Source of the DNA: an uncultured Mycobacterium sp.
GTDB lineage: Bacteria > Actinomycetota > Actinomycetes > Mycobacteriales > Mycobacteriaceae
DNA length: 64,000 nucleotides
Direction of reading: 5' to 3'
Assembly (NCBI GenBank): GCA_964513475.1
Contig: CAZEMS010000006.1
Span: 34,031 to 98,030 of the forward strand
The position numbers and the translations under genes were made by a program. Shown in pieces: positions 6,374 to 9,850 of the stretch (position 1 is its first letter; the number at the start of each line of letters is the position of its first letter). A model generated the notes under the pieces. The model saw nothing but the letters and a program-made list of their open reading frames with translations. It was not told where the DNA came from and made no database searches.

Positions 6374-7318
6374 CTAACCGCGGCGCTGGCGGGCGATCTC
6401 GGCGAGCACCACCCCGGCGGCCACCGACGCGTTCAGCGATTCGGTCGGTCCGGCCATCGGGATGGAGACCACCGCATCACAGTTCTCCCGCACCAACCTT
6501 GACAACCCCTTGCCCTCGGAGCCGACAACCACGACCACCGGCCCGGTACCGTCGAGTGCGTCAAGCGCCGTGTCGCCCCCGGCATCCAAGCCGACCACCA
6601 GCAGCCCGGCGTCACGCCAGTTCTTCAGTGCGCGAGTCAGGTTCGTCGCCCGGGCCACCGGCAACCGGGCTGCCGCGCCGGCACTGGTGCGCCAGGCCAC
6701 CGCTGTCACCGACGCGGACCGGCGTTGCGGAATCAGCACGCCGTGGCCGGCGAACGCAGCGACCGAGCGGACGATGGCGCCGAGGTTGCGCGGGTCGGAG
6801 ATGTTGTCGAGCGCAACCAGCAGCGGTGCGCTGCCTTCGGCGGTAGCCGCCTTCAGCAGATCGTCGGGATGGGCATAGCGGTACGGCGGAACCTGCAACG
6901 CCACGCCCTGGTGCAGACCGTTGGCGCTCATCCGATCAAGATCCGTGCGCGGAACCTCGAGAATGGCGATCGCCGAATCGGCGGCCAGGCGCACCGATTC
7001 GGCCAGGCGGTCGTCGGCCTGCGCCCCGAGCGCCACATAGAGGGCGGTCGCCGGGACCCCGGCGCGCAGACATTCCAGCACCGGGTTACGGCCGAGCACC
7101 ATCTCGGTGTCGTCCGCCTTGCGGGCGTTGCGCTGCTGCCGGGTCTTGGCCGCTTTGGCCGCGCGTTTGGCCGCCGGGTGGTAGGGCCGCTGCTCAGCAG
7201 GCGGTGTGGCACCCCGCCCGGCCAAGCCACGGCGTCGCACCCCGCCCGAACCGACGGTTGGCCCCTTCTTCGTTCCGGGCTTGCGGACCGCCCCGCGGCG
7301 GCGCGAGTTTCCGGCCAT
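6374..7318 (-). CDS. rlmB: 23S rRNA (guanosine-2'-O)-methyltransferase, SpoU family
   Basis: [25 protein letters not shown] motifs; directly downstream of cysS. Confidence 0.92.
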
Positions 7319-7320
7319 GG

Positions 7321-8754
7321 CTACGAGCCCCTGCCGGCCTGCGCCGGCTCAGCAGCCGCCTCCAGGAGCGACCACTGCGGTCCGTCGGCGGTGTCGGTTA
7401 CCTCGATCCCGGCCTCCTTGAGCCGGTCCCTGATGGCGTCGGCCTGCGCCCAATCCCGACGCGCCCGGGCCTCGGCGCGGCTGGTCAGCGCCCAACGCAC
7501 CAACACGTCGATCGCGGCCAGCGCAGCGGTGGTCTCGTCGCGCGACTCCCAGCGCTCGTCGAGCGGATCGCAACCGAGGATTCCCATCATCGCCCGTATC
7601 GAGCGAGCATGGTTCATCGCGGTCTCGTGGTCACCGGCGTCCAGCGCCCGGTTGCCCTCAGCCCGCGCGGCGTGCACCTCGGCCAGCGCGATCGGCACCG
7701 AAAGATCGTCATCCAGCGCGGCGGCGAACCGCGGCGTCCACTCCCCCGGTATGACGGCCCCGACCCGGCCGCACACCCGGTGCAAGAAGTCCTCGACTCC
7801 GGTGTAGGCCCGGACCGCATCCTGCAGGGCGGTCTCGGAGAACTCCAGCATCGAACGGTAGTGCGCACTGCCGAGGTAGTAGCGCAGTTCGGCGGCGCGC
7901 ACCCGCTGCAGCACCGCCGGAATGGACAGCACGTTGCCCAGCGACTTGCTCATTTTCTCGCCACCCATGGTGACCCAGCCGTTGTGCAGCCAGTACTGTG
8001 CGAACCCGTCACCGGCGGCGCGGCTCTGGGCGATCTCGTTCTCATGATGTGGGAAAACCAGATCCATTCCGCCACAATGGATGTCGAATTCGCCGCCCAG
8101 GTAGGTATGCGCCATGGCCGAACATTCGAGATGCCAGCCCGGGCGACCACGGCCCCACGGGGTGGGCCACGACGGCTCGCCGGGTTTGGCGCCCTTCCAG
8201 AGCGTGAAGTCACGCTGGTCCCGCTTGCCGGTGGCCTCGCCCTCACCCTGATGCACGTCGTCGATCCGGTGGCCGGACAGCTGCCCGTAGTCGGAGTAGC
8301 TGAGCACATCGAAGTAGACGTCGCCACCCCCGGTATATGCGTGCCCGGAGTCGATCAACCGGGCCATGAGCTCGATCATCTGGGTGATGTGCCCGGTGGC
8401 GCGCGGTTCGGCCGACGGTGACAGCACCCCCAGCGCCTCGTAGGCGGCCGTGAAGGCCCGCTCGTAGGTGGCGGCCCACTCCCACCAGGGCCGGCCCGCG
8501 TCGGCGGCTTTGTGCAGGATCTTGTCGTCGATGTCGGTGACGTTGCGAATGAACGCGACGTCATAGCCCTTTGCCGTCAGCCACCGCCGCAACACGTCGA
8601 ACGCGACACCGCTGCGGACGTGGCCGACGTGCGGCAGCCCCTGAACGGTTGCGCCGCAGAGGTAGATCGAAGCCTGCCCGGGCCTAAGTGGCGCAAAGTC
8701 ACGTACGGCACCGGCCATGGTGTCGTAGAGCCGCAGGTCGCCGCGATCGGTCAC
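7321..8754 (-). CDS. cysS: Cysteine--tRNA ligase
   Basis: [12 protein letters not shown] (HIGH), [24 protein letters not shown]. Confidence 0.97.
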
Positions 8755-8765
8755 GACGCGCCAGC

Positions 8766-9263
8766 TTACCGGCCGTTTTGGCGGGAACCGGCATCGGCGA
8801 TCACGAGAGCTGTCGCGATGGCGGCGAGACCCTCCCCGCGCCCGGTCAGCCCGAGCCCGTCGGCGGTGGTCGCCGAGACCGACACCGGCGCCCCGAGCAG
8901 GCCGGCGAGCACCCGCTCGGCCTCGGCGCGCCGGGGTCCCACTCTGGGCCGGTTGCCGATCACCTGTACCGCGGCGTTGACCACCCGGAATCCGGCGGCA
9001 CGCAACAGCGAGTGCACATGCCGGAGCATCTCAGCACCGCTCACCCCGCGCCACTGTGGCCGGTCGGTGCCGAAGACTTCACCGACGTCGCCCAAACCGG
9101 CGGCGCTGAGCAGCGCATCGCACAGGGCATGGGCAGCAACGTCGCCGTCGGAGTGGCCTGCGCAACCCTGCGCGTCTTCGAACATCAGGCACAGCAGCCA
9201 ACACGGCCTGTCCGCCTCGAAGGCGTGCACGTCGGTGCCGACCCCGACTCGGGGCTGGGTCAT
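8766..9263 (-). CDS. ispF: 2-C-methyl-D-erythritol 2,4-cyclodiphosphate synthase
   Basis: [38 protein letters not shown]. Confidence 0.95.
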
Positions 9264-9295
9264 TGCTCTGTACGCACGCGGCTCAACGCCGGCAT
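9260..9295 (-). pseudogene. 11-codon mini-[14 protein letters not shown] at the ispD position (possible deletion scar)
   Basis: ATG six nt after the carD stop; its TGA overlaps the ispF ATG (ATGA). Confidence 0.35.
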
Positions 9296-9301
9296 CGACG
9301 T

Positions 9302-9850
<549 letters not shown>

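Follow-up and report, generated by a model that had tools for sequence, protein, structure and literature searches.

The window analyzed here is a stretch of 64,000 nucleotides from an uncultured Mycobacterium sp., and the locus of interest within it is a run of genes on the minus strand in which carD is followed directly by ispF. The features of this run are given below in the direction of reading, with coordinates of the window.

9302-9790, minus strand: carD, RNA polymerase-binding transcription factor CarD, 162 amino acids (Pfam PF02559, CarD_TRCF_RID, and PF21095, CarD_C)
9301-9264, minus strand: 38-nt carD-ispF spacer, the site of ispD in most of the genus
9295-9260, minus strand: 11-codon open reading frame (ORF), ATG at 9295-9293, TGA at 9262-9260
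8766-9263, minus strand: ispF, MEcDP synthase, 165 amino acids, intact (TIGR00151, 166 bits with a cut-off of 116; PF02542, 175 bits)
7321-8754, minus strand: cysS, cysteine-tRNA ligase, downstream of ispF in the same direction (TIGR00435, 429 bits)
6374-7318, minus strand: rlmB-type 23S rRNA methyltransferase gene, the last of the co-directional run (TIGR00186, 204 bits)

CarD is 96-99% identical to the CarD proteins of relatives, and its gene ends with the stop codon TGA at 9304-9302. The ATG of the 11-codon ORF lies six nt past this stop, and the TGA of the ORF overlaps the ATG of ispF (9263-9261), which is exactly the geometry described in a sequence-only reading of this DNA. That reading was also right that ispD is absent from its usual place and that IspF is intact: the 38-nt spacer between carD and ispF holds no IspD-family sequence, compared with about 670 bp between the two genes in the ispD-retaining relatives G011, G005, and G002. 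No terminator-like site and no minus-strand promoter-like site were found in the spacer, and carD and the abutting ispF are probably still co-transcribed.

A misassembly at this point, for which the sequence-only reading had left room, is not borne out by independent data. Logan contigs from three public runs (two studies) match the carD-ispF junction: contig X1 over 9247-9501 and contig X2 over 9094-9309, both with 0 differences, and contig X3 over 9246-9396 with 2 differences. The whole 45-nt interval from the carD stop to the end of the ORF is tiled by contigs, none of which extends at least 31 nt beyond both of its ends; the organism's share in the public runs is at most 0.28, and support for the junction is counted as matching contigs. 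It could be argued that the genome itself (G000) is a 4.36-Mb draft of 133 contigs with 96% completeness, and that the gap between carD and ispF is therefore an assembly error or is compensated by a supply of isoprenoid precursors through the mevalonate pathway. We regard this as extremely improbable. Since the public-run contigs match the junction and eight other genomes share the adjacency of carD and ispF, the junction is not an assembly artefact; the mevalonate part of the argument is taken up below. A second record of X1, from an environmental sample, is a 1096-nt contig of a related organism with 59 differences over 396 nt of carD, in which 65 other letters replace 95 of the window's letters within 9206-9302. 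It represents one more form of the spacer between carD and ispF where ispD is missing.

Within the MEP pathway, IspD is essential, and the enzyme serves as a target for drugs and herbicides. Along with ispF, the genome contains dxr, ispG, ispH, and a GHMP kinase gene that occupies the position of ispE, close to glmU and prs. HMG-CoA reductase (PF00368) gave no match in this 96% complete genome, and GHMP kinases (PF00288) gave two matches only, one of them in the ispE position. The mevalonate route was rejected on these grounds. With the MEP genes present and no HMG-CoA reductase found, the MEP pathway is the route, and an IspD activity is therefore required.

A search of the same genome with the IspD family profile PF01128 returned three matches only. 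One of these, on contig C4, is GlmU adjoining prs and was set aside as no IspD. The other two lie together on contig C33 and are referred to here as P1 and P2.

G000:C33:30539-31279, minus strand: P1, 246 amino acids (PF01128, 142 bits with a cut-off of 27)
G000:C33:29866-30615, plus strand: P2, 249 amino acids (PF01128, 79 bits)

The two genes are convergent, tail to tail, and share 77 nt at their 3' ends (G000:C33:30539-30615; positions 1471-1547 of locus L001), an overlap that results from a C-terminal tail of P2 about 20 residues longer than in its orthologues. In relatives the overlap is about 20-30 nt. Neither P1 nor P2 reaches the cut-off of the NCBI IspD equivalog, TIGR00453, on which P1 scores 161 bits against the 181 needed, and both fall below the cut-off of 166 bits of the TarI model NF001183 (P1, 84 bits; P2, 17 bits). 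The sequence-only reading had proposed that IspD activity comes from a relocated or TarI-like cytidylyltransferase or that isoprenoids are made from mevalonate. A source elsewhere in the genome did turn up, in the form of the IspD-family gene P1; the TarI-like identity fails for P1 on its score, and the mevalonate route finds no HMG-CoA reductase. We infer that P1 and P2 are the only source of IspD activity in this organism.

The arrangement is not peculiar to a single genome, as the earlier reading would have allowed. In a sample of 400 genomes of the genus, with canonical IspD called at E<=1e-55 (about 250 bits), canonical IspD was present in 270 and orthologues of P1, an alternative IspD with 56-69% identity, in 108; comparison of the two lists by eye gave no genome (0/400) with both. 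Most of the other 22 genomes are incomplete or contain an ispD that is split. No claim made here depends on genome G025, which is flagged as unpublished. The P1 state is thus found in about 27% of the species sampled from the genus, including Mycolicibacterium vaccae NBRC 14118, and carD directly adjoins ispF in all nine P1-type genomes examined. The absence of ispD between carD and ispF is a lineage trait with a substitute elsewhere in the genome and no lesion. NCBI labels the P2 orthologues of M. holsaticum and M. pulveris as "IspD/TarI family cytidylyltransferase." Two genomes have a canonical ispD that is split over two frames, G002 (C4:359332-359977, PF01128 positions 2-119 and 119-220) and G004 (C3:1562582-1563267, PF01128 positions 1-173 and 173-221); a P1 orthologue occurs in neither, and the splits reflect a sequencing error or a pseudogene.

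The nine ispD-less junctions, that of the window and those of the eight other genomes, also allow the 11-codon ORF to be placed in context. Their carD-ispF spacers range from -1 to 41 nt, as follows.

G236 and G040: stop of carD and start of ispF overlapping as TAGTG
G009, G101, and G142: 5-8 nt
G164: 17 nt
G001: 27 nt
G000 (window): 38 nt
G323: 41 nt

The ORF had been interpreted as the scar of an in-frame deletion of ispD that preserves translational coupling. Such a recent deletion, with the scar ORF maintained as a ribosome relay from carD to ispF, could appeal to the offset of six nt and the TGA/ATG overlap, which are real, and to a spacer without a terminator, through which termination and reinitiation via the ORF are physically possible in G000 alone. 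However, the ORF occurs in none of the eight other ispD-less junctions, whatever the length of their spacers, so that a preserved coupling device is not borne out, and the loss of ispD is old and clade-wide rather than recent. The scar fares no better. The peptide encoded by the ORF (MPALS...RVRTEQ) has no resemblance to the ispD termini of relatives, and a comparison of the spacer to 10 canonical ispD genes, each taken with 60 nt of flanking sequence at either end, gave a best local score of 15, which 22 of 300 shuffles also attained; the matches lay in mid-gene. A deletion scar kept as a relay is accordingly a quite improbable account of the ORF.

A different origin is suggested by the single spacer among the eight that is homologous to that of G000, the one in G323 (locus L079, G323:C19), with a global alignment score of 18 that none of 2000 shuffles reached. 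The homologous stretch in G323 is in the frame of ispF, opens with ATGATG five nt beyond the stop of carD, and contains no alternative start codon. IspF of G323 therefore appears to carry a 15-residue N-terminal extension. This extension is absent from other IspF proteins. Where G323 has ATGATGGGC, G000 has ATGCCGGC, a 1-nt difference that places the upstream ATG out of the ispF frame in G000. The 11-codon ORF is thus probably the orphaned start of a former 5' extension of ispF that was thrown out of frame; judged from the sequences compared here, it would be an incidental remnant and no conserved coupling device, with no sign of selection for a relay.

The nature of the substitute becomes clearer when the conservation of individual residues is considered. 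In the E. coli enzyme, Thr140 and Arg157 reportedly serve the active site of the partner subunit, according to structural work. The beta-arm of IspD links the two monomers and holds the MEP site, MEP being bonded by Arg-157 and by Lys-213, and R20, K27, D106, R109, and K213 are strictly conserved (PMC11770629). Residues were counted in an alignment of 22 canonical, 61 P1, and 58 P2 sequences anchored on canonical IspD of the genus, with positions in E. coli numbering. These counts supersede those from crude regular-expression motifs, which were dropped because unanchored patterns match by chance in G+C-rich proteins.

R20: canonical 22/22, P1 60/61, P2 1/58
K27: canonical 22/22, P1 60/61, P2 1/58
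D106: canonical 22/22, P1 61/61, P2 57/58
R109: canonical 22/22, P1 61/61, P2 11/58
T of QTPQ: canonical 22/22, P1 61/61, P2 6/58
Q of QTPQ: canonical 22/22, P1 61/61, P2 4/58
K213: canonical 22/22, P1 61/61, P2 0/58 (Arg in 47)
Arm T140 (T or S): canonical 22/22, P1 0/61, P2 58/58
Arm Lys of DTxK: canonical 20/22, P1 1/61, P2 57/58
Arm R157: canonical 22/22, P1 2/61, P2 58/58

P1 keeps the full catalytic core and has lost the conserved beta-arm residues. Its arm is shorter and variable, and the catalytic residues that are invariant within a separate 29-sequence alignment of P1 are G19, R23, K30, D118, R121, and K221. P2 keeps the beta-arm residues but neither the CTP loop nor the two catalytic lysines; P2 of the genus has VPLP in place of the P-loop, combined with a deletion of 3 residues.

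From this pattern it appears likely that canonical ispD has been displaced and that the IspD step is performed by the P1/P2 pair as a heterodimer, with a composite site to which P1 contributes the core and P2 the arm. P1 would supply the CTP site and the catalytic lysines, and P2 would supply the MEP-binding arm residues in trans. With the arm residues of P2 acting in trans on P1, there would be one active site per dimer instead of two. Both the heterodimerization of P1 with P2 and the action of the P2 arm on the P1 site are predictions from residue conservation.

It is also conceivable that a homodimer of P1 is a complete IspD, in which case P2 would be a relic of native ispD that either decays slowly or has taken on some other role, be it regulatory, ligand binding, or as a partner of another protein. 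Every catalytic-core residue is kept in P1, and a P1 homodimer might have a different way of binding MEP. We consider this unlikely, as it gives no account of why P1 lost exactly those arm residues that P2 kept: T140, the lysine, and R157 are lost in 59-61 of the 61 P1 sequences and kept in 57-58 of the 58 P2 sequences.

Structure prediction and rates of evolution bear on both possibilities. The predicted fold of P1 is confident (pLDDT 92) and is modeled with an arm-like hairpin, as would be expected of a P1 that functions alone. The AF2 model of P2 has a pLDDT of 89 and a pTM of 0.83, and its best matches in the PDB are mycobacterial IspD structures (2XWM, 2XWN, and 3OKR; TM 0.80-0.86). By sequence, the solved structure nearest to P1 is that of Bacillus subtilis IspD (E=4e-25), the mycobacterial enzymes being distant (E of about 1e-8), and those nearest to P2 are IspD of M. 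smegmatis and M. tuberculosis (E of about 1e-17). P2 evolves faster than P1, which is a point in favor of a decaying relic; however, its dN/dS is below 1 in all nine close pairs compared (0.22-0.57, against 0.13-0.30 for P1), and P2 is a live gene under purifying selection.

The loss of catalytic residues from the P2 position is graded across genomes. In G024 the gene in this position (locus L021, G024:C174, 1499-2173, plus strand) retains the P-loop (GRGERL), the equivalent of K27, and QTPQ, and has lost the equivalent of K213; on this basis it is possible that it represents an intermediate stage of the split. It adjoins an arm-degenerate P1. The P2-position gene is partly degenerate in G021 and fully degenerate in G029, G030, and the genus. 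The P2 gene of G101 (locus L011, G101:C1, 838-1989) aligns in two pieces, has a very long branch, and looks frameshifted; this genome is 68% complete, so that an assembly error is as likely as decay.

An IspD tree of 84 sequences resolves two strongly supported groups. One clade (SH-aLRT 100) unites P1 of the genus, itself monophyletic (97), with P1 of other Mycobacteriales families and with IspD of Nocardioides, Kineosporiaceae, and relatives. A second clade (98) contains canonical Mycobacteriales IspD and all P2. Within it, P2 of the genus forms a monophyletic group (100) whose stem measures 1.19 changes per site, and the free tree places it outside the canonical clade of the genus, a placement flagged for long-branch effects. 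An AU test did not reject a single clade of P2 and canonical IspD of the genus (p=0.62), likewise with long branches in play. It follows from the congruent subtrees of P1 and P2 that the two were inherited together.

At all 21 of the genus's loci, P2 and P1 are adjacent and convergent. Elsewhere in the Mycobacteriales, in three other families, carD is followed by P2 on the same strand and then by P1 on the opposite strand, with ispF directly after carD-P2-P1 in G021 and G029 and 11 kb away in G024. It is from these carD-P2 orders that P2 can be said to hold the ancestral position of ispD. G030 has a degenerate P2-like gene between carD and ispF (L024/L031, G030:C8) and P1 on another contig (L023, G030:C7), so the pair is not always adjacent. 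In Nocardioides-type loci, carD is accompanied by a P2-like ORF and a convergent P1, and in some of them ispF lies directly upstream of P1. When insertion sites of the P2/P1 cassette were compared, the acyl-CoA dehydrogenase and DUF1906-like neighbors present in G000 were not found in the flanks of most relatives, these flanks being short (1.5-2.5 kb).

Across the class, 37 of 401 sampled Actinomycetia genomes and 14 of 174 genera have P1-type genes. When 37 P1 loci outside the order were scanned with a broadened P2 profile, a P2-like ORF was found immediately convergent with P1 in 34. The remaining three (L057, L064, and L100) have no P2-like ORF within the fetched flank and would suit a P1 that is sufficient without a partner nearby. 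The pair is nonetheless present in the complete, streamlined actinobacterial genomes G669, G684, and G752, of 1.3-1.4 Mb, and in G669 and G684 the PF01128 matches are P1, P2, and GlmU only. That P1 has retained P2 across orders, after relocation, and in genomes of 1.3 Mb speaks against P2 as a dispensable relic. Two P1-type genomes of other families (G550:C1:589070-589738 and G483:C45:6373-7041) have a third, strong PF01128 match (156-160 bits) that lies within an open frame about 510 amino acids long; this may be a fusion protein or another cytidylyltransferase.

Returning to the heterodimer of P1 and P2, a path to it can be envisaged from an ancestral homodimer with two shared active sites. 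An IspD of the P1 lineage may have come to lie tail to tail with native ispD, after which complementary degeneration would have removed complementary halves of the two shared sites from the two chains, leaving P1:P2 as an obligate heterodimer that has a single composite site. The P2/P1 cassette of the M. vaccae-type clade now sits at a distance from carD, with the result that carD abuts ispF. Two routes are conceivable for the genus: the cassette left the operon, or it was imported and native ispD was then deleted. Correspondingly, P2 of the genus could descend in place from native ispD or could have arrived with P1 as a cassette. Extended to the whole set of Actinomycetota concerned, we lean, with somewhat less assurance than for the displacement itself, toward an obligate heterodimeric IspD in which P2 lends its arm in trans to one active site. 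This set would comprise about a quarter of the genus, several Mycobacteriales families, Nocardioides-like genera, and lineages with 1.3-Mb genomes (37 of 401 Actinomycetia).

If correct, this would be a clean bacterial case of the transition from a homodimer with shared sites to an obligate heterodimer, and it would explain why automatic annotation finds no gene above the IspD equivalog threshold in P1-type genomes. Inhibitor and structural studies of IspD from M. tuberculosis or M. smegmatis would then also not be directly transferable to M. vaccae-type mycobacteria or to Nocardioides. At the level of the operon, the seemingly missing essential gene is here a trait of the lineage, with its substitute encoded elsewhere. 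Recent surveys describe IspD as evolutionarily rigid and mention the IspDF fusion as the sole structural exception (PMC10663253, PMC13001223, and PMC11770629). The full-text literature searched, and two of the surveys, which cover the diversity of the MEP pathway, gave no account of an IspD that is split or heterodimeric, nor of carD-ispF operons that lack ispD; this is no proof of novelty.

One of the closest known systems is canonical homodimeric IspD (E. coli YgbP; M. tuberculosis Rv3582c; M. smegmatis, PDB 2XWL), with which P1 and P2 share PF01128 and the fold. P1 has the P-loop, K27, D106, R109, QTPQ, and K213 of this enzyme, and its pathway context, given by ispF, dxr, ispG, and ispH, matches. 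In contrast to canonical IspD, the catalytic core is found in P1 only and the arm residues in P2 only, and the two genes are convergent and, in this clade, distant from carD-ispF. Bifunctional IspDF of Campylobacter and Mesorhizobium likewise departs from a one-gene homodimeric IspD and involves the ispD-ispF neighborhood; it is a fusion of two different enzymes, whereas P1 and P2 divide the residues of one enzyme over two paralogous chains. Scores on NF006899 are far below the cut-off of that model. TarI, the ribitol-5-phosphate cytidylyltransferase, belongs to the same superfamily as P1. P1 scores higher on the IspD model (161 bits) than on the TarI model (84 bits), its presence and absence complement those of canonical ispD, and it lies directly after ispF in Nocardioides-type loci; no tarJ-like partner for P1 was seen.

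A further parallel is offered by enzyme-prozyme pairs, in which a dead paralogue is the obligate partner of an active enzyme, as in trypanosomatid AdoMetDC and deoxyhypusine synthase and in the Tad2/Tad3 deaminase. These pairs are biochemically proven and mostly eukaryotic, whereas the partnership of P1 and P2 is deduced from sequence and synteny, and the degeneration in P1/P2 is reciprocal, P1 having lost residues as well. Common to both are an active subunit and a degenerate paralogue under purifying selection, and the oligomers of prozyme pairs have active sites that are shared between subunits, as is proposed here for P1 and P2.
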